From the UHGV virus genome UHGV-1652597: DNA of 18,470 nucleotides; one strand, written 5' to 3'. The notes under the pieces were generated by a model, which was not told the DNA's origin, searched no databases, and saw only the letters and a list, made by a program, of their open reading frames with translations. This DNA comes from a virus. Below, piece by piece: positions 1-18,470 of this stretch. The position numbers were made by a program, and so were the translations under genes. Every line of letters starts with the position of its first letter. Position 1 is the first letter of the stretch.

Positions 1-67
1 CGTGTCATAAGGCGAAGACGGCCCGTGAACGGTTTAAGTGATAATAATTCTCAACTGTCTGAGGGGA

Positions 68-127
68 GGGGCGGGTCAAATCTCTGCGGCCTGACGTCTT
101 CCGGACTGCCCGCCCCATCGTTTTTTT
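68..127 (+). terminator. Terminator-like inverted repeat (GGGGCGGG ... CCCGCCCC) followed by a T7 run, upstream of terS; alternatively part of the packaging (cos) region
   Basis: Perfect 8-bp inverted repeat at 68-75 and 109-116 separated by about 33 nt, then ATCG and seven Ts at 121-127. The loop is long for a canonical intrinsic terminator, hence low confidence. Confidence 0.3.
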
Positions 128-166
128 ATACCCGCGAAAAATGAAATTTAACCAGGAGTGCCGCAT

Positions 167-661
167 ATGGCTGGAACGGCGGGGCGTTCCGGGCGTCGCC
201 CCAAGCCAACGGCGCGCAAGGCGCTGGCCGGAAACCCCGGCAAGCGAGCCCTGAACAAAGATGAACCTGTTTTTACGCCCATCAAAGGTGTTGAGCCACC
301 GGAGTGGTTCGCTGAAGAAGATCTCCCTCTCGCCACGATCATGTGGCAACTGACAACCAAAGAACTCTGCGGTCAGGGCCTGTTGTGCGTGACTGACCTG
401 GCGGTACTTGAGCGGTGGTGCGTGGCCTATGAGTTCTGGCGACGTGCCGTGAAAAATATTGCCAGCCAGGGCAACACCATCACCGGTGCAATGGGCGGTA
501 TGGTCAAAAACCCGGAGCTGACCGCCAAAAAAGAACAGGAGTCCGAGATGAGCAGCACGGGGGCAATGCTCGGACTCGACCCCAGCAGCCGCCAGCGTCT
601 GATTGGCCTGGCGGGGCAGAAGAAAGCCACTAACCCGTTTCTGAAAATCATCGAATCATGA
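167..661 (+). CDS. terS: Phage terminase small subunit, P27 family
   Basis: Track ORF 158..661; N-terminus [33 protein letters not shown] is typical of P27-family small terminases. AGGAG at 154-158 sits 8 nt before ATG 167, so ATG 167 is preferred over GTG 158. Position is immediately upstream of the large terminase. Confidence 0.8.
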
Positions 662-698
662 GCCGGAAATCTTACCCCAACGTAAATGCTGCCAATTT

Positions 699-2345: not shown

Positions 2346-2356
2346 CTGAGGTAATT

Positions 2357-2539
2357 ATGATCATGCTGATTCTCGCGCCTCTGGTGGGCGTGCTGGGTGC
2401 GCTTTTGCTGGCGTATGGTGCCTGGCTGATTTATCCCCCGGCGGGGTTTGTTGTTGCCGGGGCGCTGTGCCTGTTCTGGTCGTGGCTGGTGGCGCGATAT
2501 CTCGACCGTACACAGCCGTCTGTCGGCGGAGGTAAATAG
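2357..2539 (+). CDS. Small hypothetical membrane protein (two predicted transmembrane helices)
   Basis: 60-aa ORF with two hydrophobic stretches ([23 protein letters not shown] and [16 protein letters not shown]); GAGG at 2348-2351 is 5 nt upstream of ATG 2357; stop overlaps the portal GTG start. No family recognised. Confidence 0.5.
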
Positions 2540-3780
2540 TGTTCTTTTCGGGATTATTTCAACGAAAAAGTGACGCACCGGTGACCACGCCAGCAGAGCT
2601 GGCGGATGCTATCGGGCTGTCATATGACACCTATACCGGAAAGCAGATCAGCAGCCAGCGGGCCATGCGACTGACGGCGGTTTTTTCCTGCGTCAGGGTG
2701 CTGGCGGAGTCGGTCGGGATGTTGCCCTGCAACCTGTATCACCTGAACGGCAGCCTGAAACAGAGAGCCACCGGCGAACGTCTGCATAAGCTGATCTCCA
2801 CGCATCCCAATGGCTATATGACGCCGCAGGAGTTCTGGGAGCTGGTGGTCACCTGTCTGTGCCTGCGGGGAAACTTTTACGCCTACAAAGTGAAAGCATT
2901 TGGCGAAGTGGCTGAACTGCTGCCCGTCGACCCAGGTTGTGTGGTACCGAAGCTTAACAGTAGCTGGGAACCGGTTTACCAGGTCACATTCCCGGACGGC
3001 TCCACGGATGTACTGAGCCAGGAAGATATCTGGCATGTGCGCACGCTGACGCTGGACGGTCTGGTGGGACTGAATCCCATCGCCTATGCCCGCGAGGCAA
3101 TATCGCTGGCAGCTGCGACCGAAGAGCACGGGGCCAGACTGTTCAGCAATGGTGCGGTGACGTCCGGTGTGTTGCGTACAGAGCAGACGCTGTCGGATCA
3201 GGCTTATGAGCGTCTGAAGAAAGATTTTGAGGAGCGTCACACCGGGCTTGGTAATGCTCACCGCCCGATGATCCTTGAGATGGGGCTGGACTGGAAGTCG
3301 ATGGCGCTGAACGCCGAGGACAGCCAGTTCCTGGAAACCCGCAAGTTTCAGCTTGAAGAAATCTGTCGTCTGTTCCGTGTGCCATTGCACATGGTGCAGA
3401 ACACCGATCGCGCCACCTTCAACAATATCGAAGAACTGGGGCTGGGATTTATCAACTATTCACTGGTGCCGTATCTGACCCGCATTGAGCAGCGGATCAA
3501 CACCGGACTGGTACGAAAAAGTAAGCAGGGCGTTTATTACGCCAAATTTAACGCCGGGGCGTTACTGCGCGGGGATATGAAGTCCCGTTTTGAAGCCTAC
3601 GCCACCGGGATTAACTGGGGAATTTACTCTCCCAATGACTGCCGCGACCTGGAAGATATGAATCCGCGTCCCGGTGGGGATGTCTATCTCACACCGATGA
3701 ACATGACCACGAAACCCTCCGATGGCAGTAAAGCCGGTAAGCAGAAGGATAACGCCAATGCAGACGAAACAACGTCTTGA
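2539..3780 (+). CDS. Phage portal protein, HK97 family
   Basis: 413 aa; N-terminal region RLTAVFSCVRVLAESVGMLPCNLY resembles the conserved HK97-family portal N-terminus; located between terminase and prohead protease. GTG start at 2539 overlaps the preceding stop. Confidence 0.9.
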   Translation: MFFSGLFQRKSDAPVTTPAELADAIGLSYDTYTGKQISSQRAMRLTAVFSCVRVLAESVGMLPCNLYHLNGSLKQRATGERLHKLISTHPNGYMTPQEFWELVVTCLCLRGNFYAYKVKAFGEVAELLPVDPGCVVPKLNSSWEPVYQVTFPDGSTDVLSQEDIWHVRTLTLDGLVGLNPIAYAREAISLAAATEEHGARLFSNGAVTSGVLRTEQTLSDQAYERLKKDFEERHTGLGNAHRPMILEMGLDWKSMALNAEDSQFLETRKFQLEEICRLFRVPLHMVQNTDRATFNNIEELGLGFINYSLVPYLTRIEQRINTGLVRKSKQGVYYAKFNAGALLRGDMKSRFEAYATGINWGIYSPNDCRDLEDMNPRPGGDVYLTPMNMTTKPSDGSKAGKQKDNANADETTS

Positions 3781-4408
3781 TGTACCGCTGAGTCTGAAAT
3801 CTGTCAGTGACTCCGGTGAGTTTGAAGGGTATGGCTCCGTCTTTGGTGTAAAGGACAGCCACGATGATGTGGTGATGTCCGGGGCATTTGCTGCTTCCCT
3901 GCGGGCGTGGAGTGACAGAAAAGCGTTACCTGCGCTGCTCTGGCAGCACCGCATGGATGAACCCATCGGTGTTTACACCGAAATGAAGGAAGACGATGTC
4001 GGGCTTTACGTCAGGGGGCGGTTGCTCATTGATGATGATCCCCTCGCAAAACGCGCACATGCACACATGAAGGCCGGTTCGTTAACCGGCCTTTCTATTG
4101 GGTACGTCCTGAAAGACTGGGAATACGACCGGAGCAAAGAAGCCTTTCTGTTGAAAGAAATCGACCTCTGGGAAGTCAGTCTGGTGACGTTTCCGTCTAA
4201 CGACGAGGCGCGGATCAGCGACGTCAAGAACGCGCTGGCCCGCGGGGAAATCCCCGAACAGAAAAAAATCGAAAGAGTCCTGCGTGATGTCGGACTCTCC
4301 CGTACCCAGGCCAAAGCATTCATGGCCGGGGGCTATGGCGCACTGTCCCTGCGCGACGCTGAGTATGTGGGCTCTGCACTGAATGCACTGAAAAATCTGA
4401 ACTTCTAA
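3758..4408 (+). CDS. Prohead maturation protease, HK97 family
   Basis: Motif FEGYGSVFGVKDSHDDVVMSGAF matches the HK97-family prohead protease N-terminal signature. The track ORF starts at 3722, but ATG 3758 has an AAGGA Shine-Dalgarno about 8 nt upstream and is preferred. Overlaps the portal 3' end. Confidence 0.85.
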   Translation: MQTKQRLDVPLSLKSVSDSGEFEGYGSVFGVKDSHDDVVMSGAFAASLRAWSDRKALPALLWQHRMDEPIGVYTEMKEDDVGLYVRGRLLIDDDPLAKRAHAHMKAGSLTGLSIGYVLKDWEYDRSKEAFLLKEIDLWEVSLVTFPSNDEARISDVKNALARGEIPEQKKIERVLRDVGLSRTQAKAFMAGGYGALSLRDAEYVGSALNALKNLNF

Positions 4409-4422
4409 TCAGGAGAAATACG

Positions 4423-5628
4423 ATGGCGGTTGATATTAAAGATGTCGAACAGGTCGCGCAGGAGCTGCAGCAGAAGTTTGACGACTTCAAAGCAAAGAAC
4501 GACAAGCGCGTGGATGCGATTGAGCAGGAAAAAGGCAAGCTTGCCGGGCAGGTGGAAACCCTGAACGGGAAACTCAGCGAGCTGGAAAATCTCAAAAGCG
4601 ACCTTGAAAAAGAGCTGCTTGAGCTGAAACGTCCGGCAGGTGGAGCGCAAAATAAACTGGCCACCGAGCATAAAGAGGCGTTTGTGGGCTTTCTACGTAA
4701 AGGCCGTGAAGACGGTCTGCGCGATCTGGAGCGTAAGGCATTGCAGGTGGGTACCGATGAAGACGGTGGCTACGCCGTGCCGGAAGAACTGGATCGCAAC
4801 ATTCTTAACCTGCTGAAAGATGAAGTGGTGATGCGTCAGGAAGCCACGGTGATCACCGTTGGCGGTTCCGACTACAAAAAACTGGTGAATCTGGGCGGTA
4901 CGGCTTCCGGATGGGTGGGGGAAACGGATACGCGATCCCAGACTGCCACCTCCAGACTGGAGCTGATTGAACCTCTCATGGGGGAAATCTACGGCAACCC
5001 GCAGGCTACCCAGAAAATGCTGGACGATGCCTTCTTCAACGTGGAGGCCTGGATTAACAGCGAGCTGGCAACCGAATTTGCCGAACAGGAAGAAATTGCC
5101 TTTACCTCAGGCGATGGCACCAAGAAGCCGAAAGGGTTCCTGGCGTATGAATCCACTGATGAAACCGACAAGGTCCGGGCGTTCGGCAAACTTCAGCATA
5201 TTGTATCCGGCGAAGCGACCGCGGTGACCGCAGACGCCATTATCAAACTGATTTACACGCTGCGTAAGGCACACCGCACTGGCGCGAAGTTCATGATGAA
5301 CAACAACAGCCTGTTTGCCATCCGTCTGCTGAAAGACACCGAGGGTAACTATCTGTGGCGTCCGGGGCTGGAACTGGGGCAGCCGTCCTCTCTGGCGGGT
5401 TACGGTATCGCTGAAAACGAACAGATGCCGGATATCGCCGCTGATGCGAAAGCCATTGCATTTGGTAACTTCAAACGGGGTTACACCATCGTTGACCGTA
5501 TCGGCACCCGCATTCTGCGTGACCCGTACACCAATAAACCGTTTGTCGGTTTTTATACCACCAAGCGCACCGGCGGGATGCTGGTCGATTCGCAGGCCAT
5601 CAAACTGCTGAAGATTGCAGCGGCGTAA
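4423..5628 (+). CDS. Major capsid protein, HK97 family, with N-terminal coiled-coil (delta/scaffolding-like) domain
   Basis: 401 aa; N-terminal about 100 residues are highly charged and heptad-like (EQVAQELQQKFDDFKAKNDKRVDAIEQEKGKLAGQVETLNGKLSELENLKSDLEKELLELK), followed by a body typical of HK97-fold capsid proteins; AGGAG Shine-Dalgarno before ATG; follows the protease. Confidence 0.9.
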   Translation: MAVDIKDVEQVAQELQQKFDDFKAKNDKRVDAIEQEKGKLAGQVETLNGKLSELENLKSDLEKELLELKRPAGGAQNKLATEHKEAFVGFLRKGREDGLRDLERKALQVGTDEDGGYAVPEELDRNILNLLKDEVVMRQEATVITVGGSDYKKLVNLGGTASGWVGETDTRSQTATSRLELIEPLMGEIYGNPQATQKMLDDAFFNVEAWINSELATEFAEQEEIAFTSGDGTKKPKGFLAYESTDETDKVRAFGKLQHIVSGEATAVTADAIIKLIYTLRKAHRTGAKFMMNNNSLFAIRLLKDTEGNYLWRPGLELGQPSSLAGYGIAENEQMPDIAADAKAIAFGNFKRGYTIVDRIGTRILRDPYTNKPFVGFYTTKRTGGMLVDSQAIKLLKIAAA

Positions 5629-5634
5629 TCACTC

Positions 5635-5659
5635 AGGGGGGCGGAACCGCGCCCCCTGT
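5635..5659 (+). terminator. GC-rich hairpin immediately downstream of the major capsid gene (possible partial terminator or RNA-stabilising stem-loop)
   Basis: CAGGGGG (5635-5641) pairs with CCCCCTG (5653-5659), with further internal GC pairs around a GAAC loop; followed by TGTTCT, which is only weakly T-rich. Confidence 0.35.
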
Positions 5660-5677
5660 TCTGACGGGTGAAGAATC

Positions 5678-5878
5678 ATGATCCTGAAACAAGATCTGAA
5701 ATGGTCACCGGACGGTATGCGTGTTGAGGTCATTCGGGCCGGTGAGTATGACGACGGGGCGCTTCCTGCCCGGGTGCAGGAGATTGCACTTCAGGCCGGG
5801 TTAGCAGAGCGCGGAACCAGTGCAAAAAGCAGTAAAGCGGCAAAAGAGAAAAAAGCCACGACCAGTAAAGAGGGCTGA
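5678..5878 (+). CDS. Hypothetical small protein with Lys/Ser/Thr-rich C-terminal tail
   Basis: 66-aa ORF between the capsid and head-tail connector genes, same strand and tightly packed; no family recognised. Confidence 0.4.
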   Translation: MILKQDLKWSPDGMRVEVIRAGEYDDGALPARVQEIALQAGLAERGTSAKSSKAAKEKKATTSKEG

Positions 5879-5880
5879 GT

Positions 5881-6204
5881 ATGCTTCTGACAATGGAAGA
5901 GATTAAAGCCCAACTCCGGCTGGATGAGGATTTCGATGCTGATGACCGCCATCTGCAACTGCTGGCCTGTGCGGCGCAAAAGCGGACGGAAACGTATCTG
6001 AACCGGAAGCTCTATGCACCGGATGAAACCATTCCGGAGAGCGATCCGGACGGGCTGCACCTGCCGGATGATATTCGTCTGGGGATGCTGATGCTTATCA
6101 GCCATTTTTACGAAAACCGCTCGTCGGTTACGGAAGTGGAGAAACTCGACATGCCGCAGAGTTTTGGCTGGCTTGTCGGCCCGTACAGGTACTTTCCGCA
6201 ATGA
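5881..6204 (+). CDS. Head-tail connector protein (gp6-like)
   Basis: N-terminus MEEIKAQLRLDEDFDADDRHLQLLACAAQKRTETYLNRKL matches the characteristic pattern of gp6-like head-tail connector proteins; position right after the capsid gene. Confidence 0.75.
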   Translation: MLLTMEEIKAQLRLDEDFDADDRHLQLLACAAQKRTETYLNRKLYAPDETIPESDPDGLHLPDDIRLGMLMLISHFYENRSSVTEVEKLDMPQSFGWLVGPYRYFPQ

Positions 6205-6611
6205 AAATTCGTCAGGCGCAGACCAGCGCAACCTACATTCTGCCGGACCCCGGTGAACTGAATAAACACGTCCTGATCCGCCTGCGGGTGGATATGCCCG
6301 CGGATAACTTTGGCGTGGAGCCTCAATACCCGGTTACGTTCCGGACATGGGCGAAGGTTATCCAGACCAGTGCCACCACCTGGCAGGAAACCGCGCAGAC
6401 CGGGGACGCCATCACCCATTACATCACCATTCGTTACCGCCGGGGGATCACCGCTGATTATGAGGTGGTCTGCGGTGACAGTGTGTACCGGGTGAAACGT
6501 CAGCGTGATCTGAACGGGGCGCGGCGCTTTCTGCTGCTGGAGTGTACGGAGCTGGGCGAATGTAGGCAGAGTCACGGAGGCAGCAATGGCGACTCCCTTT
6601 TTTCACGTTGA
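6201..6611 (+). CDS. Head closure / head-tail joining protein
   Basis: 136 aa; ATGA overlap with the connector gene; internal segments (ITIRYRRGIT, RRFLLLECTEL) resemble head-tail joining (head closure) family proteins; conserved position. Confidence 0.6.
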   Translation: MKIRQAQTSATYILPDPGELNKHVLIRLRVDMPADNFGVEPQYPVTFRTWAKVIQTSATTWQETAQTGDAITHYITIRYRRGITADYEVVCGDSVYRVKRQRDLNGARRFLLLECTELGECRQSHGGSNGDSLFSR

Positions 6612-7092
6612 TGTTCAGCAGCCCGCCGAGATGCGCTTTAACCGCGCCCGTGTCCGGCGGGCGTTTGTCACGATTGGGCAGCGTCATATGCGTGATGCCC
6701 GTCGGCTGGTGATGCGCCGTGCGCGGTCGGCACCGGGTGAAAACCCCGGTTATCAGACCGGACGCCTGGCTCGTTCGATTGGTTATATGGTGCCGAGAGC
6801 CAGTAAAAAGCGAGCCGGTTTTATGACACGCATTGCCCCTAACCAGCGCAACGGGAAGGGGAACCGGATGATCTCTGGTGACTTCTATCCGGCGTTTCTG
6901 TTTTTTGGTGTCCGGGGAGGAGCAAAACGTCGTCGTAGTCATCATCGTGGTGCATCCGGTGGCAGCGGCTGGCGACTGGCTCCACGTAATAACTTCATGG
7001 TGGAAACTCTTGAAAAGAACCGCAGCTGGACACGCTATTTTCTGGCGCGGGAATTGCGTAAATCACTGAAGCCGGAGCGACGACACAGATGA
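6586..7092 (+). CDS. Putative neck / tail-completion protein (HK97 gp10-like)
   Basis: 168 aa, basic; segment PGYQTGRLARSIGY resembles the D/TG-x-L-x-x-S-I motif I associate with HK97 gp10-family tail components; position between head-closure and tail genes. Confidence 0.45.
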   Translation: MATPFFHVDVQQPAEMRFNRARVRRAFVTIGQRHMRDARRLVMRRARSAPGENPGYQTGRLARSIGYMVPRASKKRAGFMTRIAPNQRNGKGNRMISGDFYPAFLFFGVRGGAKRRRSHHRGASGGSGWRLAPRNNFMVETLEKNRSWTRYFLARELRKSLKPERRHR

Positions 7093-7649
7093 AACTGACG
7101 CCTGTTATTGCTGCGCTGCGTGCCCGCTGCCCGTATTTTGAAAACCGGGTGGCAGGCGCGGCACAGTTCAAAAATCTGCCGGAGGTCGGAAAGCTGAGAC
7201 TCCCGGCGGCGTATGTGGTACCGGGTGATGACTCTCCGGGAGAAAACAAAAGCCAGATCGACTACTGGCAGGAGCTGAAAGAGGGCTTCTCCGTGGTTGT
7301 CATACTGAGTAACGGGCGTGATGAGCGCGGTCAGTTTGCCTCGTATGATGTGGTGGACGATGTCCGGCAGATGCTCTTTAAGGCCCTGCTGGGCTGGAAC
7401 CCGGAAGCGTGCGGTAACCCGATTACCTATGACGGCGGCACGCTGCTGGATCTGAATCGTCATGAGCTGATTTATCAGTTCGATTTTTCGGTCATCAGCG
7501 AGCTGACTGAAGACGATACCCGCCAGCAGGATGATCTGAACAGTCTGGATGAACTGCAAACGCTGGCGATTGATGTTGATTATCTCGAGCCCGGTAACGG
7601 GCCTGACGGCGATATCGAACATCACACCGAAATAACCCTTCCTTCCTGA
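7089..7649 (+). CDS. Hypothetical phage neck/tail protein (positional equivalent of Mu-like gp37)
   Basis: 186 aa; ATGA overlap with the upstream gene; acidic C-terminus; call is based on synteny (two genes upstream of the tail sheath in Mu-like tail modules), not a recognised motif. Confidence 0.4.
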   Translation: MKLTPVIAALRARCPYFENRVAGAAQFKNLPEVGKLRLPAAYVVPGDDSPGENKSQIDYWQELKEGFSVVVILSNGRDERGQFASYDVVDDVRQMLFKALLGWNPEACGNPITYDGGTLLDLNRHELIYQFDFSVISELTEDDTRQQDDLNSLDELQTLAIDVDYLEPGNGPDGDIEHHTEITLPS

Positions 7650-7657
7650 GGATCCTC

Positions 7658-7825
7658 ATGTTTGTCAAACCTGTTAAAGGGCGGTCAGTTCCTGACCCTG
7701 CCCGCGGCGACCTTTTGCCCGCCGAAGGGCGAAATGTTGACGAGAACAACTACTGGCTGCGCCGTGAAGTAGCGGGTGATATCCGGCGCGTGAATAAAAA
7801 GGTGAATACCGATGACGAGCTTTAA
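7658..7825 (+). CDS. Small conserved protein preceding the tail sheath (Mu-like gp38 / DUF2635-like); not in the supplied ORF track
   Basis: Hand-translated 55-codon ORF ATG 7658 to TAA 7823-7825: MFVKPVKGRSVPDPARGDLLPAEGRNVDENNYWLRREVAGDIRRVNKKVNTDDEL. It overlaps the sheath start by 14 nt and resembles the small proteins found upstream of sheath genes in Mu-like tail clusters. Confidence 0.45.
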   Translation: MFVKPVKGRSVPDPARGDLLPAEGRNVDENNYWLRREVAGDIRRVNKKVNTDDEL

Positions 7826-9305
7826 CACCATTCCGTCGAATACGCTGGTTCCGCTGTTTTATGCGGAAATGGATAATCAGGCGGCGAATACTGCACAGGA
7901 CAGCGGAGCATCGCTGCTGATTGGTCATGCCAATAACGGTGCAGAGATTGTTGCCAACAGTCTGGTACTGATGCCGTCGGCAGACTATGCACGCCAGATT
8001 TGTGGTGCGGGAAGTCAGCTGGCGCGTATGGTCGAGGCTTATCGCCAGACCGACCCGTTTGGCGAGCTATATGTGATTGCCGTTCCTGAATCCACAGGCG
8101 CGGCGGCAACGGTTACGCTGACGGTGACCGGGGCGGCAACCGAAACCGGCACGGTGAATGTCTATGTGGGACGTACCCGCGTGCAGGCTCCGGTGACCAA
8201 CGGCGATAACGTCACGACGATTGCCAGCAGTATCAAAGATGCCATCAATGCCGTTCCGGCCCTGCCGTTTACGGCTTCATCTTCGGCAGGCGTGGTCACA
8301 CTGACCGCGCGTCATAAGGGGCTTTGCGGGAATGAAATTCCTGTCAGCCTCAATTACTACGGCTTTGGTGGGGGCGAAGTGCTGCCAGCGGGCGTACAGA
8401 TTGCCGTGGCGACGGGTACCGCCGGAACGGGTGCTCCGGTTCTCACCGGCGCGGTGGCTGCAATGGCGGATGAGCCGTTTGATTATATCGGTCTGCCGTT
8501 CAACGACACGGCCTCCGTTAACACGCTGGTGACCGAGATGAACGATACCAGCGGTCGCTGGAGCTATGCGCGTCAGCTGTATGGTCATGTGTATACGGCA
8601 AAGATCGGCACGCTGTCAGAACTGGTGACCGCAGGTGACCAGTTTAACCAGCAGCACATTACCCTGGCGGGGTACGAAAAAGAGACCCAGACGCCTGCCG
8701 ACGAACTGGCGGCAAGCCGTACCGCCCGCGCAGCGGTGTTTATTCGCAACGATCCGGCACGTCCCACGCAGACCGGTGAGCTGGTGGATATGCTGCCTGC
8801 GCCGAAGGGGAAACGGTTCACGATGACCGAACAACAGACCCTGCTGTCTCATGGCGTGGCAACGGCGTATGTCGAAAGCGGGGTACTGCGCATTCAGCGT
8901 GATGTCACCACGTACAGGAAAAACGCTTACGGGGTTGCGGATAACAGCTACCTCGACAGTGAGACACTGCATACCAGCGCGTATGTACTGCGCAAACTGA
9001 AATCCGTCATTACCAGTAAGTACGGGCGTCACAAGCTTGCCAGTGACGGTACCCGCTTTGGTCCCGGTCAGGCGATTGTCACCCCGGCGGTGATCAAAGG
9101 GGAACTGCTGGCAACCTACCGTCAGCTTGAGCGTGCGGGGATCGTGGAAAACTACGAACTGTTTAAGCAGTACCTGGTTGTGGAGCGTGATGCCAGCGAT
9201 CCGAACCGCCTGAACACGCTGTTCCCGCCTGACTATGTTAACCAGTTGCGTGTCTTTGCCGTGGTTAACCAGTTCCGTCTTCAGTATTCAGAGGAGTCTG
9301 CATAA
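7812..9305 (+). CDS. Contractile tail sheath protein (Mu gpL-like)
   Basis: 497 aa; N-terminus TSFNTIPSNTLVPLFYAEMD is typical of sheath proteins; immediately followed by a tube gene with TAATG overlap. Confidence 0.9.
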   Translation: MTSFNTIPSNTLVPLFYAEMDNQAANTAQDSGASLLIGHANNGAEIVANSLVLMPSADYARQICGAGSQLARMVEAYRQTDPFGELYVIAVPESTGAAATVTLTVTGAATETGTVNVYVGRTRVQAPVTNGDNVTTIASSIKDAINAVPALPFTASSSAGVVTLTARHKGLCGNEIPVSLNYYGFGGGEVLPAGVQIAVATGTAGTGAPVLTGAVAAMADEPFDYIGLPFNDTASVNTLVTEMNDTSGRWSYARQLYGHVYTAKIGTLSELVTAGDQFNQQHITLAGYEKETQTPADELAASRTARAAVFIRNDPARPTQTGELVDMLPAPKGKRFTMTEQQTLLSHGVATAYVESGVLRIQRDVTTYRKNAYGVADNSYLDSETLHTSAYVLRKLKSVITSKYGRHKLASDGTRFGPGQAIVTPAVIKGELLATYRQLERAGIVENYELFKQYLVVERDASDPNRLNTLFPPDYVNQLRVFAVVNQFRLQYSEESA

Positions 9306-9661
9306 TGGCCCGTATCGGGGGAACCTGTTATTTCAAAATTGACGGTCAGCAGCTATCGCTGACCGGCGGCATTGAGGTGCCCATGAACAGGACGGTCAAT
9401 GATGACATCATCGGCCTGGACGGTTCAGTGGACCGCAAGGAAACTCACCGTGCGCCCTATGTCAAAGGGACCTTCAAGGTGCCGAAGAATTTTCCGGTGA
9501 GCAAAATCACCTCGTCTGATGAGATGACCATCACTGCCGAGCTGGCGAACGGTCAGGTCTATGTACTGTCGTCTGCCTGGCTGCACGGCGAAGCGAACCA
9601 TAATGCCGAAGAAGGCACGGTTGATCTTGAGTTCCACGGTGAAGAAGGGGATTACCAGTGA
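9305..9661 (+). CDS. Tail tube protein (Mu gpM-like)
   Basis: 118-aa ORF directly after the sheath gene with overlapping stop/start; size and position typical of the tube protein of Mu-like contractile tails. Confidence 0.8.
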   Translation: MARIGGTCYFKIDGQQLSLTGGIEVPMNRTVNDDIIGLDGSVDRKETHRAPYVKGTFKVPKNFPVSKITSSDEMTITAELANGQVYVLSSAWLHGEANHNAEEGTVDLEFHGEEGDYQ

Positions 9662-9981
9662 TTGAGCTTGTACTTAAAAAACCGATCATCGCCCACAAAG
9701 AAACACTGCATGTGCTGGAAATACGTGAGCCTACGTATGACGAGATTGAGGCGCTGGGGTTCCCTTTCTCTGTTTCACCTGATGGTGGTATGAAAATGGA
9801 CAGTCAGGTAGCGCTGAAATATATCCCGCTTCTGGCCGGGATCCCGCGCTCGTCTGCAGCGCAGATGACGAAGCTGGATATTTTCAAGGCAGGCATGATT
9901 GTAATGCGTTTTTTTACCGGCTTGGAGACGGAAGAGACCTCCGGAAGCGATTCTACAATGTCGCGTGGTTCTGGAAATTAA
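9658..9981 (+). CDS. Tail assembly chaperone (gpG / P2 gpE-like)
   Basis: 107 aa, acidic; located between the tube and tape measure genes; contains an in-frame T7 run at 9909-9915 (candidate slippery site). Confidence 0.7.
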   Translation: MIELVLKKPIIAHKETLHVLEIREPTYDEIEALGFPFSVSPDGGMKMDSQVALKYIPLLAGIPRSSAAQMTKLDIFKAGMIVMRFFTGLETEETSGSDSTMSRGSGN

Positions 9982-10073
9982 ACCCCCTTGAACTTCGCCG
10001 GACGGCTATTTCCCACTTTGCTGATCTGGAGGCAGAGGCCGTCCGTATAAATGAGGAGATGAAGCATGGCTGA
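9658..10073 (+). CDS. Putative -1 frameshift product of the tail assembly chaperone (G-T / E-E' type fusion); slip at T_TTT_TTT 9909-9915
   Basis: Heptamer T TTT TTT lies in the zero frame (codons TTT 9910-9912 and TTT 9913-9915). The -1 frame is open from 9783 to TGA 10071-10073, giving about 52 extra residues (YRLGDGRDLRKRFYNVAWFWKLNPLELRRTAISHFADLEAEAVRINEEMKHG) that end just inside the tape measure start. Confidence 0.45.
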
Positions 10074-11973
10074 TAATTTTCAGCTGAAAGCCATCATCAC
10101 CGCCGTTGACAGGCTGTCCGGCCCGCTTAAAGGTATGCAGCGTCAGCTTAAGGGGTTTCAGAAAGAAGTCTCCAGCCTTGCTCTGGGCGCTGCCGGGGCG
10201 GGTACTGCAATAATGGGGGCACTGGCACTCCCTGTAAAATCAGCCATCACCCTTGAATCGAAGATGGCTGATGTCCGCAAAGTGGTAGACGGTCTGGATA
10301 CGCCGGATGCGTTTAAGGCCATGACGGAGCAGGTACGCGCTTTGTCTACTGAGCTTCCCATGTCTGCAGACGGGATCGCGGAAATTGTGGCGGCTGGCGG
10401 TCAGGCCGGGATTGCACGTGATGAACTGATGCAGTTTGCCACTGATGCGGTGAAGATGGGCGTGGCCTTTGATACCACGGCTGAAGAGTCCGGGCAGATG
10501 ATGGCCCAGTGGCGTACTGCGTTTAATATGACGCAGGATGAAGTGGCCGGGCTGGCTGACAAAATCAACTACCTTGGTAATACCGGCCCGGCGAATGCGA
10601 AGAAAATCTCCGATATTGTTACGCGTATTGGTCCTTTAGGTGGTGTTGCAGGTGTGGCTTCCGGCGAAATCGCGGCAATGGGGGCAACCATTGCCGGGAT
10701 GGGCGTGGAGTCAGAAATTGCCGCCACAGGGATCAAGAACTTCATGCTTTCCCTGACCGCGGGAAATTCCGCGACAAAATCGCAGAAACAGGCATTACGT
10801 TTTCTGCGGATCAATCCGAAGAAATTAGCTGCTGATATGCAGAAAGATGCCCGGGGAACCATGCTGTCTGTACTGGATGCGATGGCTAAAGTGCCCAAAG
10901 AAAAACAGGCAGCTGTGCTGAATGCCCTGTTCGGGAAAGAGTCTCTGGGCGCGATAGCACCTCTGCTGACTAACCTTGATTTGTTGCGTACCAACTTCAG
11001 GCGGGTTGCGGATTCCCAGCAGTATGGCAGTTCGATGCAGAAGGAATATGCTTCGAGGGCAGCGACGACGGAAAACCAGCTTTTACTTCTGCAAAATCAA
11101 CTTGATGCCATTTCTTCCACGCTGGGGGAAACGTTTCTTCCTGAGGTTAATGATGGTCTTGAAGCGGTAAAACCGCTCCTTGAGGAAGTGAGAACGTTTG
11201 TCCGTGAAAACCCGGAGCTCGTTAAGACCATTGCTAAAATCGGTCTGGCCTTACTGACGGTGGGAGCCGCTGCAGGCTCTTTGTCCAGAATTATGAAAGT
11301 TCTCGGCGGTGTGATGAATATGACGCCTGCTAAGGGGCTGATTGCTCTTCTGGTTGGTGGCGCTTACCTCATTATTGATAACTGGGAAACCGTAGGTCCT
11401 GTCATAAAAAAAGTCTGGCACGTGGTGGATGAAACGGCGCAGGCGATGGGGGGATGGGAAACTGTTCTGAAAGCGATTGCCCTGTTTATGGCAACCAAAT
11501 GGGTTGCTGACGTTACCAAATCCATTACCGCAGTGACCAGAGAGATGCGTACGCTGGGGAAGGTATCGGCAGAAACGGGATTGATGGGGAAAGGCCGCGG
11601 CTTTATCGGGAAGGCCGGGGTATATGGTTTTCTGGGAACCCTGATGTATGAGCCGGTTAAAGATACTCTGGAAAGTGTTGTTCCTGAAGATACGGTTAAC
11701 TGGCTGGATAATAAAGGGCTGTTTCTGGCTTCAGACTGGACGCCTTTTTTTGATCGTAAAGAGTACGAGCAGTATCAGGCCAGCCTGAGTCAGTACAAAC
11801 CCAATGTTCCGCTGCTGAATCCATCTTCTTCCATGACACAGCACAGCGAGCTGAAAGTCACGTTCGAGAATGCTCCGCCAGGTATGAAGATAATTGATGT
11901 ACCGGGCAAAGCCGATCCCCTGATGAAAATCACGCACGATGTGGGGTATTCCCCTTTTCGTTTTCCACGATAA
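10066..11973 (+). CDS. Tail tape measure protein
   Basis: 635 aa; Ala/Gly-rich N-terminal helical region and hydrophobic central segments; GAGGAG Shine-Dalgarno 7 nt upstream of ATG; positioned after the chaperone as in all long-tailed phages. Confidence 0.9.
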   Translation: MADNFQLKAIITAVDRLSGPLKGMQRQLKGFQKEVSSLALGAAGAGTAIMGALALPVKSAITLESKMADVRKVVDGLDTPDAFKAMTEQVRALSTELPMSADGIAEIVAAGGQAGIARDELMQFATDAVKMGVAFDTTAEESGQMMAQWRTAFNMTQDEVAGLADKINYLGNTGPANAKKISDIVTRIGPLGGVAGVASGEIAAMGATIAGMGVESEIAATGIKNFMLSLTAGNSATKSQKQALRFLRINPKKLAADMQKDARGTMLSVLDAMAKVPKEKQAAVLNALFGKESLGAIAPLLTNLDLLRTNFRRVADSQQYGSSMQKEYASRAATTENQLLLLQNQLDAISSTLGETFLPEVNDGLEAVKPLLEEVRTFVRENPELVKTIAKIGLALLTVGAAAGSLSRIMKVLGGVMNMTPAKGLIALLVGGAYLIIDNWETVGPVIKKVWHVVDETAQAMGGWETVLKAIALFMATKWVADVTKSITAVTREMRTLGKVSAETGLMGKGRGFIGKAGVYGFLGTLMYEPVKDTLESVVPEDTVNWLDNKGLFLASDWTPFFDRKEYEQYQASLSQYKPNVPLLNPSSSMTQHSELKVTFENAPPGMKIIDVPGKADPLMKITHDVGYSPFRFPR

Positions 11974-11997
11974 CGCAGTCCTTTTTGAGGTCAGTCT

Positions 11998-13374
11998 ATG
12001 GATTTATCCTCATTTCCCACCCGACCTTCATTACTTTCGTCGTCTTCAGGCTGGCGTGACAGACTTCAGGACGCGTCATTTCGCGGCGTGCCGTTTAAGG
12101 TTGAAGAAGAAAGTGCGGGAACCGGTCGCCGTGTGGAAACACATGAATACCCGAACCGCGACAAACCCTATACCGAAGACCTGGGGAAAATCACTTTTCG
12201 CCCGTCCATCACGGCTTATGTGGTGGGAGATGACTGCTTTGACCAGCGCGATCGCCTGATTGAAGCGCTGAATAAACCCGGTCCCGGCACGCTTGTCCAC
12301 CCGACATATGGTGAGCTGAAAGTCTGTGTTGACGGGGAAGTTCGGGTCAGCACATCGAAAAGTGAAGGGCGTATTGTCCGCTTTGACCTGAAGTTTGTCG
12401 AAGCAGGAGAACTCTCTTACCCCACATCAGGTGCGGCGACGGCGCAGACGCTGATGTCATCCTGTTCTGCACTGGATGACTGCATCAGTGACAGCTTCAG
12501 CGGTTTCAGTATCGATGGTGTGGCGGATTTCGTGCAGAACGACGTTATCGGTAATGCCAGCATAATGCTGGGGTATGTTTCTGATGCGATGAAAGTGGTG
12601 GATTCTGCCGTATCGGATGCCGCCAGGCTGTTGCAGGGGGATATCTCGGTACTTCTGCCGCCGCCATCGTCAGGCAAAAATTTCGTTGAGCAGGTGCAGA
12701 AAATGTGGCGTACCGGGAAACGCCTTTATGGTAACGCCAGCGACCTGGTCACCATGATCAAAACGCTTTCCGGTGTCAGCCTCGGCAGCGATCTGCAACC
12801 GCGCGGCGTCTGGAAAACGGACAGTAAAACCACCGCCACGGCGACGCAGCAGCGTAACGTGGTTGCCAGCACCCTTCGTACGACCGCAATCAGCGAAGCG
12901 GCGTATGCCGTCACCCGATTGCCTGCGCCAATAACTTCCGCGGTGATGCAGAATTCCGCAGTGGGGCAGGCAACAACACCCGCGCAGAGCACTGGCTGGC
13001 CTTCCGTCACGCATCCGGCACTGAACAATGCACCGGCGGTGAAAAACACGGTTGACCTGCCGACGTGGGAAGAACTGACTGACATTCGCGACACACTGAA
13101 TACGGCAATTGATAAGGAGTTGTCCCGTACAACCAGTGATGCGCTGTTTCTGGCGCTGCGCCGGGTGAAAGCAGATCTGAATGCGGATATCAACACGCGC
13201 CTTGAACAGTCTGCACGGATCATTCAGCGCACACCGGATGAGGTTTTACCCGCGCTGGTGCTGGCGGCGACCTGGTTTGATAACGCGGCGCGTGACGCGG
13301 ACATTATCCGGCGTAATGCCATTACGCATCCCGGCTTTGTGCCGGTGATCCCTCTGAAGGTGCCAGTGCAATGA
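11998..13374 (+). CDS. DNA circulation protein (Mu gpN-like) / baseplate hub component
   Basis: N-terminal segment WRDRLQDASFRGVPFKVEEESAGTGRRVETHEYPNRDKPYTEDLG matches the conserved N-terminus of Mu N-family proteins; follows the tape measure. Confidence 0.85.
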   Translation: MDLSSFPTRPSLLSSSSGWRDRLQDASFRGVPFKVEEESAGTGRRVETHEYPNRDKPYTEDLGKITFRPSITAYVVGDDCFDQRDRLIEALNKPGPGTLVHPTYGELKVCVDGEVRVSTSKSEGRIVRFDLKFVEAGELSYPTSGAATAQTLMSSCSALDDCISDSFSGFSIDGVADFVQNDVIGNASIMLGYVSDAMKVVDSAVSDAARLLQGDISVLLPPPSSGKNFVEQVQKMWRTGKRLYGNASDLVTMIKTLSGVSLGSDLQPRGVWKTDSKTTATATQQRNVVASTLRTTAISEAAYAVTRLPAPITSAVMQNSAVGQATTPAQSTGWPSVTHPALNNAPAVKNTVDLPTWEELTDIRDTLNTAIDKELSRTTSDALFLALRRVKADLNADINTRLEQSARIIQRTPDEVLPALVLAATWFDNAARDADIIRRNAITHPGFVPVIPLKVPVQ

Positions 13375-14450
13375 ACGACAATGTCACGCTACGGGTAAAT
13401 GGCCGGGAGTGGAATGGCTGGACATCGGTGCGCATCGGTGCCGGTATTGAACGGCTGGCGCGGGATTTCAGTGTGGAGATCACTCGCCAGTGGCCGGGAG
13501 ATGAGGGTATCACCACGCTTCAGCCGCGCATTAAAAACGGTTCAAAAGTGGAAGTGCTGATTGGTGATGAGCTGGTGATTACCGGCTGGGTGGAGGCGAC
13601 TCCCGTTCGTTACGATGCCCGTTCGGTCAGTACCGGTATTGCCGGACGTAGTCTGACGGCTGACCTGATTGACTGTGCAGCCGAACCGACACAGTTTAAC
13701 GGACGCTCGCTGGTGCAGATTGCGCAGGCGCTTGCTGCGCCTTTCGGCATTGAGGTGGTGAACAGCGGTGCGCCGTCGGGTGTTATTCCTGATGTTCAGC
13801 CTGATCACGGTGAAACGGTGATTGAGGTAATCAACAAAATACTCGGTCAGCAGCAGGCGCTGGCTTACGACGACCCGCACGGCAGGCTGGTGATTGGCGG
13901 TATTGGCTCAACGCGGGCACATACCGCGCTGGTACTTGGGGAAAACATCCTTTCCTGTGATACGGAGAAGAGTATCCGGGAGCGGTTTTCTGTTTACCAG
14001 GTGGCGGGGCAGCGTGCCGGAAACGACGATGATTTCGGTGAGGCCACCACCACCGCGCTGCGGGCCCGCACAGAGGACGCATTTATTGCCCGTTACCGTC
14101 CGATGTATATCAGGCAGACAGGGCAGGCCACGGGGGCAGGTTGTATTGCGCGTGCTGACTTTGAAGCCCGACAACGGGCGGCGCGGACGGATGAAACCAC
14201 CTATGTGGTGCAGGGCTGGCGACAGGGTAACGGTACGCTGTGGCAGCCCAACCAGCGGGTGATTGTCTTCGATCCGGTCTGTGGTTTCGACAATACCGAA
14301 CTGCTTGTCTCGGAAGTCACGTTTACTCAGGACCAGAACGGCACTCTGACGGAAATCCGTGTCGGCCCACCTGATGCTTATCTGCCTGAACCCGAAGCCC
14401 CCGGCGCGCGGAAAAAGAAAAAAGCCAGAGTACAGGAGGACCCGTTCTGA
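13371..14450 (+). CDS. Tail/baseplate protein (Mu gpP-like, late control D-like family)
   Basis: 359 aa; ATGA overlap with the upstream gene; position after the N-like gene as in Mu-like tails; N-terminal VTLRVNGREWNGW pattern. Confidence 0.7.
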   Translation: MNDNVTLRVNGREWNGWTSVRIGAGIERLARDFSVEITRQWPGDEGITTLQPRIKNGSKVEVLIGDELVITGWVEATPVRYDARSVSTGIAGRSLTADLIDCAAEPTQFNGRSLVQIAQALAAPFGIEVVNSGAPSGVIPDVQPDHGETVIEVINKILGQQQALAYDDPHGRLVIGGIGSTRAHTALVLGENILSCDTEKSIRERFSVYQVAGQRAGNDDDFGEATTTALRARTEDAFIARYRPMYIRQTGQATGAGCIARADFEARQRAARTDETTYVVQGWRQGNGTLWQPNQRVIVFDPVCGFDNTELLVSEVTFTQDQNGTLTEIRVGPPDAYLPEPEAPGARKKKKARVQEDPF

Positions 14451-14998
14451 TGAGGACGATTGAAGCCATGCAGCGACAACTTCTCGGCCTGATTGGGCGG
14501 GCAGTGGTGAAAAGCATCAGTGCCGCCACGAAATGTCAGACCGTGGATGTGTCCCTGATTGCCGGTGAACCCAAAGCCGGGGTTGAACATCTTGAACCCT
14601 ACGGTTTTACCGCAAGGGCAAACAGCGGTGCGGAAGCGGTGGTGTTGTTTCCGGATGGCGACCGTTCTCATGCGGTGGTTGTTACGGTGTCGGACCGGCG
14701 CTACCGCCTGAAAGGGCTGCAGACGGGTGAGGTGGCTGTCTATGACGATCAGGGGCAGTCTGTGACGCTGACCCGGGAGGGGATCGTGGTGGACGGTGCA
14801 GGTAAAACGATCACGTTTCGCAATGCACCTGAAGCACGTTTTGAAATGGACCTGGAAGTGACAGGACAGGTGAAAGACCTGTGCGACTCCGGCGGCACCA
14901 CCATGTCAGCGATGCGGCTTGCCTATAACGGGCATCGTCACAGAGAGAACGGTCAGGGCAGTAACACCGACAAACCGGATAAAGCGATGGAGGCATGA
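14450..14998 (+). CDS. Baseplate assembly protein V (central spike, gpV-like / Mu gp45-like)
   Basis: 182 aa; N-terminal region IGRAVVKSISAATKCQTVDVSLIAGEPKAGVEHLEPYGFTARANSGAEAVVLFPDGDRSHAVVV is typical of gpV spike OB-fold domains. Confidence 0.8.
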   Translation: MRTIEAMQRQLLGLIGRAVVKSISAATKCQTVDVSLIAGEPKAGVEHLEPYGFTARANSGAEAVVLFPDGDRSHAVVVTVSDRRYRLKGLQTGEVAVYDDQGQSVTLTREGIVVDGAGKTITFRNAPEARFEMDLEVTGQVKDLCDSGGTTMSAMRLAYNGHRHRENGQGSNTDKPDKAMEA

Positions 14999-15423
14999 TG
15001 GAACTGTGGCTGACGGTGAACGGTAAACGCACCTGCGCCAGCGCACCGCTGGATCCGCTGACCCGCTCCGTGGTGATTTCCCTGTTTACCTGGCGGCGGG
15101 CGGAGCCTGATGACAACGCCGACGTCCCGATGGGATGGTGGGGGGATACCTGGCCTGCGGTACAGAATGACCGTTACGGCTCCCGACTGTGGCTGCTTCA
15201 GCGCAGCAAACTGACCAATCAGCTGGTGCAGACGGTAAGGGGGTATATCCGCGAATGCCTGCAATGGATGATTGATGATGGCGTGGTGTCCCGTATTGAT
15301 CTGGATATCCGCCGCACCGGGATTAATGAACTGGGTAACAGTATCACTCTCTGGCGTCGTGACGGACCGGTAATGATTTCTTTTGATGATCTGTGGAGTG
15401 CGATAACGCATGGCGGACAGTGA
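14995..15423 (+). CDS. Baseplate protein, GP46 family (gpW-like)
   Basis: 142 aa; ATGA overlap; size and position between V-like and J-like genes match the Mu-like gp46 family. Confidence 0.7.
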   Translation: MMELWLTVNGKRTCASAPLDPLTRSVVISLFTWRRAEPDDNADVPMGWWGDTWPAVQNDRYGSRLWLLQRSKLTNQLVQTVRGYIRECLQWMIDDGVVSRIDLDIRRTGINELGNSITLWRRDGPVMISFDDLWSAITHGGQ

Positions 15424-16468
15424 ATTTCAGCGCCCGACGCTGGCAGAAAATATCAGTATGCTCCGTAACGATTTATTCGCCAGGCTGGACGTCAGCGACA
15501 CGCTCCGGCGCATGGATGAAGACGTGCGGGCAAAGGTGTATGCGGCGGCGCTGCATACGGTTTACGGGTACATCGATTATCTGGCAATGAACATGCTGCC
15601 TGACCTGTGCGATGAGTCCTGGCTGGCGCGACATGCTGCGATGAAACGGTGTCCGCGCAAGGGGGCCACGGCTGCCAGCGGGTATATGCGCTGGGAAGGT
15701 GTCAGCGATGGCCTGAAGGTGACTGCCGGGAGCGTGATTCAGCGCGATGACCTGGTTCAGTACACGGCAACTGCCGATGCAACCAGCTCCGGTGGTGTCC
15801 TGCGTGTGCCGATCGCCTGCTCAAATGCAGGCGCGGTCGGTAACACTGACGACGGTACGGCATTAATCCTGGTCACGCCGGTGAATGGTCTGCCGTCTTC
15901 CGGTGTGGCTGACACCCTGACAGGCGGATTTGATGCTGAAGATCTGGAAACGTGGCGCGCCCGCGTCATTGAGCGGTATTACTGGACGCCTCAGGGCGGG
16001 GCTGACGGGGACTATGTCGTCTGGGCTAAAGAAGTGCCCGGCATTACCCGCGCATGGACATACCGACACTGGATGGGAACGGGGACTGTCGGTGTGATGA
16101 TTGCCAGCAGTGACCTGATTAATCCCATTCCGGAAGAGTCAACGGAAACGTCGGCAAGACAACATATCGAGCCACTGGCCCCGGTGGCAGGCTCTGATTT
16201 GTATGTATTCAGGCCGGTGGCGCATAAAGTGGATTTTCATATCCGCGTGACGCCGGACACACCGGAAATACGGGCTGCCATCACCGCCGAGTTGCGTTCG
16301 TTCCTGCTGCGTGATGGTTATCCGCAGGGAGAACTGAAGGTGTCACGTATCAGTGAAGCGATTTCCGGTGCGAACGGGGAATACAGCCATCAGTTGCTTG
16401 CCCCGGCGGACAATATCTCCATTGCGAAAAATGAACTGGCGGTTCTGGGGACGATTTCATGGACGTGA
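15410..16468 (+). CDS. Baseplate J-like protein (Mu gp47-like)
   Basis: 352 aa; position and size typical of the baseplate J wedge protein; overlaps flanking genes. Confidence 0.85.
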
Positions 16469-17043
16469 CAAACGATGATTACATCCGTCTGTTGTCGGCA
16501 CTGTTGCCCCCTGGTCCGGCGTGGTCAGCCAGCGATCCGGCGATTGCCGGTGCAGCACCGTCATTAACCCGCGTTCATCAGCGTGCGGATGCCCTGATGC
16601 GGGAGCTGGATCCGCGCACCACCACTGAACTGATAAACCGCTGGGAGCGTCTGTGCGGTCTGCCGGATGAATGTATTCCGGCGGTAACGCAGACCCTTCG
16701 CCAGCGTCAGCAACGGCTGGATGCGAAGGTTAACCTGGCGGGCGGCATCAACGAGGATTTTTATCTTGCACAGCTTGCTGCCCTGGGCAGACCAGATGCC
16801 ACCATCACGCGATACGACAAAAGCACGTTCACCTGCTCATCGGCCTGTACTGACGCGGTGAATGCGCCGGAATGGCGGTATTACTGGCAGATCAACATGC
16901 CAGCCGACACCAACACCACCTGGATGACATGTGGCGATCCCTGTGATTCCGCACTGCGTATCTGGGGCGACACCGTTGTCGAGTGTGTGCTTAACAAACT
17001 CTGCCCGTCGCATACCTACATAATTTTTAAATATCCGGAGTAA
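16459..17043 (+). CDS. Tail protein, YmfQ / DUF2313 family (Mu gp48-like, P2 gpI-like)
   Basis: 194 aa; N-terminus [19 protein letters not shown] and segment [13 protein letters not shown] are characteristic of the YmfQ/gp48 family; precedes the tail fiber gene. Confidence 0.75.
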
Positions 17044-17046
17044 TCC

Positions 17047-17838
17047 ATGCATCGTATAGACACGAAAACCGCGCAGAAGGATAAGTTCGGCGCGGGTAAG
17101 AACGGTTTTACCCGTGGTAACCCCCAGACCGGCACACCTGCCACCGATCTGGATGATGACTACTTTGACATGTTGCAGGAGGAGCTTTGCAGCGTGGTGG
17201 AGGCCTCCGGTGCCAGCCTGGAGAAGGGGCGGCATGACCAGCTGCTTACCGCGCTTCGTGCGCTGCTGTTAAGCCGCAAGAATCCGTTTGGCGATATCAA
17301 ATCGGATGGCACGGTGAAAACGGCTCTCGAAAACCTTGGTTTGGGAGAAGGCTCTGCATTACCGGTTGGGGTGCCTGTTCCGTGGCCTTCAGCCACTCCG
17401 CCAACAGGCTGGCTGAAATGCAACGGTGCCGCTTTTTCTGCTGAAGAATACCCGGAACTGGCAAAGGCTTATCCGACAAATAAATTGCCTGATTTACGTG
17501 GTGAGTTTATTCGTGGCTGGGATGACGGGCGTGGTATTGATGCTGTACGTGCCTTGCTAAGTCTTCAGAATGGAGGAGTGGAATCACACACCCACCAAGG
17601 GCAGCTCTTCAGAGTTAGTGATTATCGTACAAAAGAAATACCAGCATCAGAAGTTATGGGAAGAGGATATATTGCAAGCCTGACGCCGGGTGCTGATAGC
17701 CCACTTGATTTTGATGATTATTCTGTATCTTCTAATCCAAATGGATATTTTGTCGGGAATCAGAGAACAACAGCATATGGGATAAATGAAACCCGTCCAC
17801 GGAATATTGCATTTAACTATATCGTGAGGGCTGCATAA
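17047..17838 (+). CDS. Tail fiber protein with C-terminal tail-collar-type domain
   Basis: 263 aa; N-terminus ([46 protein letters not shown]) resembles the conserved baseplate-attachment region of fibers; C-terminal part ([21 protein letters not shown] ... [12 protein letters not shown] ... ETRPRN) matches the tail-collar fold signature; followed by a tail fiber assembly gene. Confidence 0.8.
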
Positions 17839-18440
17839 TGGATAACGCTGTATTAAATAGCGAGTTTATTGCTACAAAGGCGGGGAATATTACCGTCTAT
17901 AACTATGATGGCGAAACACGGGAATATATTTCCACATCAACTGAATATCTTGCCGTTGGTGTCGGTATCCCTGCATATTCCTGTTTAGATGCCCCTGGCA
18001 CATACAAAGCTGGTTATGCAATCTGCCGATCTGTAGATTTTAACTCATGGGAATATGTGCCAGACCATCGCGGTGAAATCGTCTTTAGCACCGAAACAGG
18101 AGAATCAAAAGAAATCACAGTTTCGGGTGATTACCCTGATAATACAACCACTATCGCCCCTTTATCTCCATACGATAAATGGGATGGTGAGAAATGGGTG
18201 ACCGATACTGAGGCACAGCATAGCGCCGCAGTAGACGCGGCAGAAGCACAGCGCCAGTCACTGATTGATGCTGCAATGGCTTCCATCAGTCTGATTCAGC
18301 TGAAATTAAAGGCCGGACGGAAACTGACGCAGGCAGAAACAACCCAGCTTAACGCTGTGCTGGATTACATTGACGCGGTGACGGCAACAGATACCAGCAC
18401 CGCGCCGAATGTCATCTGGCCTGAACTGCCGGAGGCGTAG
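17838..18440 (+). CDS. Tail fiber assembly protein (Tfa chaperone)
   Basis: 200 aa; TAATG overlap with the fiber gene; C-terminal region (KWDGEKWVTDTEAQHSAAVDAAEAQRQSLIDAAMASISLIQLKL ... DTSTAPNVIWPELPEA) is characteristic of enterobacterial Tfa proteins. Confidence 0.9.
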   Translation: MDNAVLNSEFIATKAGNITVYNYDGETREYISTSTEYLAVGVGIPAYSCLDAPGTYKAGYAICRSVDFNSWEYVPDHRGEIVFSTETGESKEITVSGDYPDNTTTIAPLSPYDKWDGEKWVTDTEAQHSAAVDAAEAQRQSLIDAAMASISLIQLKLKAGRKLTQAETTQLNAVLDYIDAVTATDTSTAPNVIWPELPEA

Positions 18441-18470
18441 GCCATTCAATATCTGGAGCACTGGAGGGAT

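Follow-up and report, generated by a model that had tools for sequence, protein, structure and literature searches.

A tail fiber gene of an SfV-like phage is split by a Pin-type crossover site and is very probably an invertible fiber of the e14/SfV type

The short tail fiber gene close to the right end of the virus genome UHGV-1652597 raises the question of whether its 263-aa product is an unusually compact receptor-binding fiber, the remnant of a longer one, or one of two forms between which a phage can switch. An initial annotation of the 18,470-nucleotide stretch analyzed here, referred to as the window throughout, took the first view and described a conserved N-terminal baseplate-attachment region combined with a C-terminal segment that carries a tail-collar signature; it overlooked a Pin-type crossover site that splits the fiber gene at codons 93-101. 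Our analysis indicates that the protein is very probably an invertible fiber of the e14/SfV type, in which a Pin-type flip would swap the Collar C-terminus together with its chaperone.

The window covers the complete structural module of a temperate myovirus that resembles SfV and has a Mu-type baseplate. Homologs of Mu gp44, gp45, gp46, gp47, and gp48 were detected by Pfam 5' of the fiber gene, and the remaining genes encode, on the head side, the small and large terminase, portal, prohead protease, capsid, and connector proteins and, on the tail side, the sheath, tube, tail chaperone, tape measure, and a DNA-circularization protein. Bases 1-17350, which reach from the terminase to the crossover site, share 97-98% identity with SfIV, SfII, SfI, SfV, and vB_EcoM-720R4. 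Together with the gene content, this match to SfV-family phages identifies the window as an SfV-like structural module and the open reading frame (ORF) at 17047-17838 as its tail fiber gene; the features discussed below are collected in Table 1. Elsewhere in the module, an ORF with a Phage_TAC_7 tail assembly chaperone match (9658-10066) is separated from the tape measure gene by an 84-bp gap, the usual location of a programmed frameshift product like E/E' of P2, and a 168-aa ORF between the head completion and tail terminator genes (6586-7092) gave no Pfam match at E<0.001.

Table 1. Positions in the window of the fiber gene, its parts, and the neighboring features
Feature	Position	Strand	Basis
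Baseplate_J gene, Mu gp47-like wedge	15410-16468	+	Pfam E=3e-53
Mu gp48-like/YmfQ wedge gene, immediately 5' of the fiber gene	16459-17043	+	Phage_Mu_Gp48 E=9e-26 (Pfam)
GGAG ribosome-binding site, 6 nt 5' of the fiber ATG	17037-17040	+	Sequence reading
Tail fiber gene, 263 aa, ATG to TAA, Collar-expressing orientation	17047-17838	+	ORF, Pfam, PHROG, StfP2 comparison
Constant N-terminal part (aa 1-97), not on the invertible segment; putative module for baseplate attachment	17047-17337	+	StfP, SfV-family, and Mu S comparisons
26-bp Pin-type crossover site CTCTCGAAAACC-TT-GGTTTGGGAGAA, central TT at 17336-17337	17324-17349	.	Exact match; K-12 identity; inversion breakpoint
Variable C-terminal part (aa 98-263), inside the invertible segment	17338-17838	+	Start of P2-like match; silent copies beside invertases
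Collar domain PF07484, aa 108-155, full profile 1-57	17368-17511	+	Pfam E=1.2e-15
Hypervariable tip, aa 166-247, presumed receptor-binding surface	17542-17787	+	Alignment A1; K-12 StfE comparison; GC
Invariant C-terminal stretch, aa 248-263	17788-17835	+	Alignment A1
Tfa, TfaE-like tail fiber assembly chaperone, 200 aa, coupled via TAATG, on the invertible segment	17838-18440	+	Caudo_TAP E=1.8e-31
tfa' 3' end, convergent second chaperone gene, cut by the window end; stop at 18412-18414	18412-18470	-	Reverse-strand translation

The identity of the product as a tail fiber held up, since tail-fiber families of PHROG matched the 263-aa protein with E values down to 1e-76 and sequence homology to T4 gp37 and gp12 was found. 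All of the motifs quoted in the initial annotation were present, at aa 122-142, aa 147-158, and aa 248-253 (ETRPRN), and its tail-collar assignment was borne out by the Collar domain, which scored 57.6 bits against a gathering score of 24. The stop codon of the fiber gene overlaps the ATG of the next gene. In an alignment of diverse homologs (alignment A1), a block at aa 75-165 that spans the crossover-site codons and the Collar domain was invariant, and at least four unrelated N-terminal modules stood ahead of the common Collar end. The tip, by comparison, varied in both sequence and length among otherwise identical proteins, with an invariant His-x-His motif formed by H181 and H183 (17587-17595). 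The constant part had a GC content of 56%, the tip and the 5' half of the chaperone gene one of 43%, and the whole window one of 55%. Because the tip is hypervariable and different from the K-12 version, the distinct receptor specificity that had been suggested for this fiber is plausible. The 23 residues upstream of the crossover site (aa 75-97; 17269-17337) were kept in homologs P0006, P0007, and P0013 despite their unrelated N-terminal modules, an observation that points to a conserved linker preceding the crossover site across different phage lineages.

Sequence homology to T4 fibers extended over much of the C-terminal part. The T4 gp37 tip (PDB 2XGF) matched residues 90-203 of the query at E=2.5e-18, covering the collar and the first His-x-His; a short tail fiber (9CUY) matched residues 101-261 at E=2e-17, and the T4 gp12 short tail fiber (1OCY, 1PDI, and 5IV5) was also detected, 1OCY with E=1.6e-5. 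The C-terminal NIAFNYIVR stretch is common to T4 gp37, yet on its own it is nonsignificant (i-Evalue of 53). Compared to the T4 fibers, the window fiber has only about 80 aa from the collar to the C-terminal stretch and only one conserved His-x-His. Through His-x-His motifs, gp37 binds iron ions along its trimer axis; the metal of gp12 is zinc. As the SHTH of the query aligns with the HSH (AHSH) of gp37, His181 and His183 probably form a metal site above the collar. An AlphaFold2 monomer computed with a 13-sequence alignment reached a mean pLDDT of 36, too low for use; the homologs were too alike, and an intertwined trimer is the state to be expected.

Database records of this fiber family carry misleading names. 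The NCBI PGAP pipeline describes the gene as "incomplete; missing C-terminus", i.e., as a pseudogene that stops at codon 174, in L001 (6589-7380), which among annotated E. coli genomes is the closest to the window (97.4% identity), and in L006 (3589-4380). The fiber ORF of both is actually intact and encodes 263 aa, of which 1-2 are substituted compared to the window, and because it is intact in all three sequences, the label is probably an annotation artifact of the hypervariable tip. Many database copies of the family are named "integrase" (e.g., P0002, P0038, P0041, and P0046), which looks like a propagated misannotation.

At positions 17324-17349 the fiber gene reads CTCTCGAAAACCTTGGTTTGGGAGAA, a crossover site of the Gin/Cin/Pin/Hin type. 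The 26-mer is present as a single copy in the window; 200 shuffles gave an expectation of 0. Prophage e14 of E. coli K-12 has the same 26 bases as the left site of its P segment, and bases 17336-17351 are the inverted repeat TTGGTTTGGGAGAAGG given for that segment (PMC12529663). In 9 of the 10 best records, matches of SfV-family phages to the window stop at 17350. Matches of P2-like phages, i.e., pro483, P2 of E. coli O157:H43, and several Klebsiella phages, begin only at 17325-17336. With the SfV-family match running to 17350 and the P2-like match starting from 17325, the fiber can be read as a constant N-terminus joined to a Collar C-terminus, and, as judged from these alignments, the crossover site is a sharp mosaic boundary.

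This arrangement has a well-described counterpart in the e14 P segment of K-12 (stfP/ycfK, tfaP, tfaE, stfE, and pinE), which shares not only the left site but also the order of genes, i.e., ymfQ, fiber, tfa, reverse tfa, reverse fiber fragment, and pin. When the window fiber was compared with K-12 StfP2, a reconstructed inversion product of 262 aa, 96 of the first 97 residues were identical, as were aa 98-165 and aa 248-263, whereas the tip was unrelated in sequence to that of StfP2/StfE. By this comparison, the window fiber is a homolog of e14 StfP2 that differs from it in the tip. The MG1655 record of K-12 shows the opposite orientation, in which StfP is expressed and the Collar part is listed as the pseudogene stfE, and e14 is a defective remnant, unlike the complete structural module of the window. 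The N-terminal conservation noted in the initial annotation was likewise found: the constant part is common to the SfV family, being identical in SfV orf21 and SKA5 except for 1-2 residues, and it is distantly related to Mu S (aa 38-100 versus 42-110, 25% identity, pairwise E=1e-6), a weak similarity that fits attachment to a Mu-like baseplate. The SfV-family phages SfV, SfI, SfII, SfIV, and SKA5 are recorded with a gp53-like or other C-terminus expressed, in fibers of 215-216 aa.

The same logic of organization is seen in the G segment of phage Mu (S/U, S'/U', and Gin), where a constant N-terminus lies outside, two opposed C-termini and their chaperones lie inside, and a serine recombinase adjoins; the C segment of P1, with Cin, follows the same inversion logic. 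Mu differs in scale, with an S protein of 504 aa, a constant part of about 170 aa, and a G segment of about 3 kb, compared to 263 aa, 97 aa, and about 1.8-1.9 kb for the window fiber. Mu Sv is unrelated to the fiber C-termini, and the similarity of Tfa to Mu U is marginal (E=0.055). P2-like phages, i.e., pro483, P2 of E. coli O157:H43 T22, and Klebsiella Kp48xx, carry the same cassette of Collar part and 200-aa Tfa with 89-92% DNA identity, starting at the crossover site, but on another, longer constant part (the expressed fiber of pro483 has 399 aa). Prototype P2 H showed no significant similarity to the window fiber, so a comparison with P2 H is valid only for those P2-like phages that carry the Collar cassette.

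The chaperone genes downstream also follow the e14 plan. The 200-aa Tfa matched PHROG 105 with E=1e-96 and is identical to K-12 TfaE at 179 of 200 residues. In the final 59 bases of the window, the last 18 codons of tfa' are visible on the reverse strand, encoding a C-terminus ending in PSSAPDIEWPTPPAVQAR that is identical to that of Tfa' in Shigella L016 and nearly identical to that in L001. The forward chaperone gene appears to be a mosaic in itself (18147-18446): identity to L001 is 100% over 17347-18046 and then 92-95% in the 3' part, where the GC content rises from 42% to 55%, and the N- and C-terminal halves of Tfa apparently have separate histories.

The window ends at 18470, about 0.7 kb short of the expected right site, so that the right site and recombinase would lie beyond it, and the layout of the full segment was read from relatives. 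In the contig collection, 80 blocks are indexed for the identical 263-aa protein, and an exact-protein look-up retrieved six contigs with this fiber, whose DNA differs at 32-63 of 1424 bases, no contig being identical. All six encode Tfa, a reverse-strand Tfa', and a resolvase-family gene, and in each of them a right site in inverted orientation lies at a distance of 1859-1912 bp from the left one, with 5-7 mismatches. An inverted second site with the same central dinucleotide is also found in L001, K-12, and SKA5. In L001 the order of genes is ymfQ, fiber, tfaE, reverse tfa', a reverse 116-aa gp53-like fragment, and pinE; pinE also adjoins in L005 and L006, and an invertase does so in SKA5 and pro483. 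The right site of L001 departs from the left one at 9 positions, a number of mismatches that about 9% of shuffles reached in a mismatch scan, and a repeat finder run on L001 did not report the two sites, the right one being too degenerate. That the L001 right site is real is supported by its position, the inversion breakpoints, and the better-conserved right sites elsewhere rather than by its sequence alone.

In these relatives a silent C-terminal fragment is present that would be fused in frame after a flip. For L001, a flip is predicted to join codon 97 in frame to the alternative C-terminus, yielding a 199-aa fiber. The Collar fragment itself is the silent one beside an invertase in pro483, SKA5, K-12, and Shigella L016, and SKA5, a complete phage, has the same segment layout with an invertase and a silent cassette of the Collar type. 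Several side observations were made in the same region. In L004 (Escherichia phage vB_EcoM-689R6; 3589-5870), the fiber follows the window into the Collar region, as far as 17534, and stops there, with mcrA and a DNA invertase gene directly after it, most of the invertible segment apparently having been deleted. The slot past the pin gene holds varied defense cargo, including a LEM-3-like GIY-YIG nuclease, AbiTii, GmrSD, and McrA (L008, 8870-11526; L009, 8495-10384; L001, 9386-10159; L004, 4381-5214; L007, 6347-7180), and this pin-distal slot at the prophage end is apparently a variable hotspot for defense genes. Three contigs with the identical fiber (L010, L012, and L013; ~8900-11500) end with DinI and an integrase beside a Dus-family (tRNA-dihydrouridine synthase) gene, which may mark the integration site of this prophage lineage.

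Inversion was shown in near relatives of this prophage, not in the prophage itself. The sister E. coli isolates Z1323PEC0011 and Z1323PEC0013, recovered from South Korean dogs, agree in their flanking coordinates, and their sole difference across 7.3 kb is an inversion: 1815 bases differ, with 0 mismatches once the segment is reverse-complemented and 0 mismatches outside it. The breakpoint falls inside the 26-bp site, the exchange being confined to the TTGGTTT core common to both sites. Among complete E. coli genomes, the predicted flipped junction was found full-length in 6 and the window-type junction in 517. When one genome per species was scanned for an exact 30-mer, the sole match came from Shigella flexneri SFBU0723; it is a locus other than that of the window and is in the flipped orientation. 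The 1797-bp e14 P segment is reportedly inverted by PinQ, PinE, and PinR (PMC12529663), and both of its orientations are reported to coexist in clonal MG1655-derived cultures (PMC4272514).

From these data, the following mechanism is proposed for the window. Codons 1-97 would lie outside, and codons 98-263 with the coupled chaperone gene inside, an invertible segment of about 1.8-1.9 kb. The right site is expected near 19160-19250, about 1.83-1.91 kb from 17336, and should resemble TTCTCCCAAACCAAC.TTTATGAAAA. A Pin-type serine recombinase encoded just past the window end would cleave the two 26-bp sites at the central TT/AA dinucleotide, and the flip would put the same N-terminus in frame with an unrelated gp53-like C-terminus, whose own chaperone gene would then gain the expressed orientation. 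The prophage population would then give rise to two kinds of virion that differ in receptor specificity. As oriented in the window, the gene product would be a short homotrimer made up of an N-terminal attachment part, a metal-holding collar, and a small hypervariable tip, the putative receptor-binding end. A Fis-dependent recombinational enhancer is established for Gin, Hin, and Cin; here it would be situated within or close to the recombinase gene, past the window end.

As the main alternative, the gene might encode a fixed, nonswitching short fiber, with the site a relic left after loss of the recombinase or the second site, so that only the Collar form is made. We consider this unlikely, even though SfV is without an invertase, an IS element replaces the silent half in SfIV, and the DNA of the window stops ahead of the right site and recombinase gene. 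The resolvase-family gene speaks on both sides, as it is truncated in two of the six loci with the identical fiber but is full-length, with Resolvase and HTH_7 domains, in the other four. The convergent tfa' end in the window argues that the segment was not deleted as it was in SfV, and Pin homologs of other prophages are reported to invert the e14 segment in trans (PMC12529663). Altogether, the features of an e14-type P segment that can be checked inside the window are present there, and the remaining ones were found in every close relative examined, except for the silent fragment, a reverse-strand promoterless Gp53-like_C fragment called in four of the six exact-protein contigs. The invertible fiber of e14/SfV type thus remains the preferred reading.

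It is very unlikely that the product serves mainly as a host anti-phage blocker of adsorption, as reported for the e14 inversion products StfE2 and StfP2, rather than as a virion fiber. StfP2 made from a plasmid is reported to protect 107-fold against T2 and 290-fold against Bas69 (PMC12529663), but the main effector in that study is StfE2, not StfP2, and the tip of the window fiber is unlike the K-12 version. Moreover, the gene belongs to a module whose packaging, head, and tail genes are complete and share 97-98% identity with those of the infectious phages SfI, SfII, and SfIV, and this module is no cryptic remnant.

The description of the fiber as unusually short holds against Mu S (504 aa; 1515 nt) and P2 H (669 aa; 2010 nt) and fails within its own family, where the best 120 database homologs, which come from E. 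coli, E. albertii, E. fergusonii, and Salmonella, have 227-279 aa (common lengths being 275, 279, 263, 260, and 256 aa) and the fibers SfV orf21, SKA5, and K-12 StfP have 216, 215, and 209 aa, respectively. Similarly, the suggestion of a compact receptor-binding module stands as far as the Collar receptor-binding end is concerned, and what had been taken for a special compact design is the standard layout of an e14/SfV-type invertible fiber. That the gene is instead a truncated remnant, produced by deletion from a longer Mu S- or P2 H-type fiber, can be rejected with very little doubt: P2-like phages do carry the same Collar cassette, and PGAP calls the gene incomplete in L001 and L006, but the ORF is intact in both of these and in the window, the identical protein recurs throughout the contig collection, homologs fall in the length range given above, infectious SfV-family phages make do with 215-216 aa, the pro483 cassette is likewise a promoterless fragment next to an invertase, and the conserved C-terminal stretch is retained.

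Invertible fibers of the e14/SfV type are already known, and the locus is an ordinary one, with nothing beyond prior descriptions; its sole individual feature is the tip variant, and the exact protein is already common in databases. There is a small chance that this tip variant binds a receptor so far unassigned to Collar-type fibers or that the prophage-made fiber blocks the adsorption of other phages; if the latter were true, the invertible segment would be a joint switch for host range and defense in an intact, inducible phage. Host-range switching through Pin-invertible fiber genes is textbook knowledge for e14, Mu, P1, and P2-like phages. When the present ORF is read as a fixed gene, its swappable 3' two-thirds are overlooked by gene callers and readers alike. 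In close relatives, the NCBI pipeline wrongly enters the gene as a partial pseudogene even though it is intact, and in some records it appears as an integrase. With its conserved frame and a hypervariable tip of about 80 residues, this fiber family offers a handy natural scaffold on which receptor specificity can be studied or engineered.
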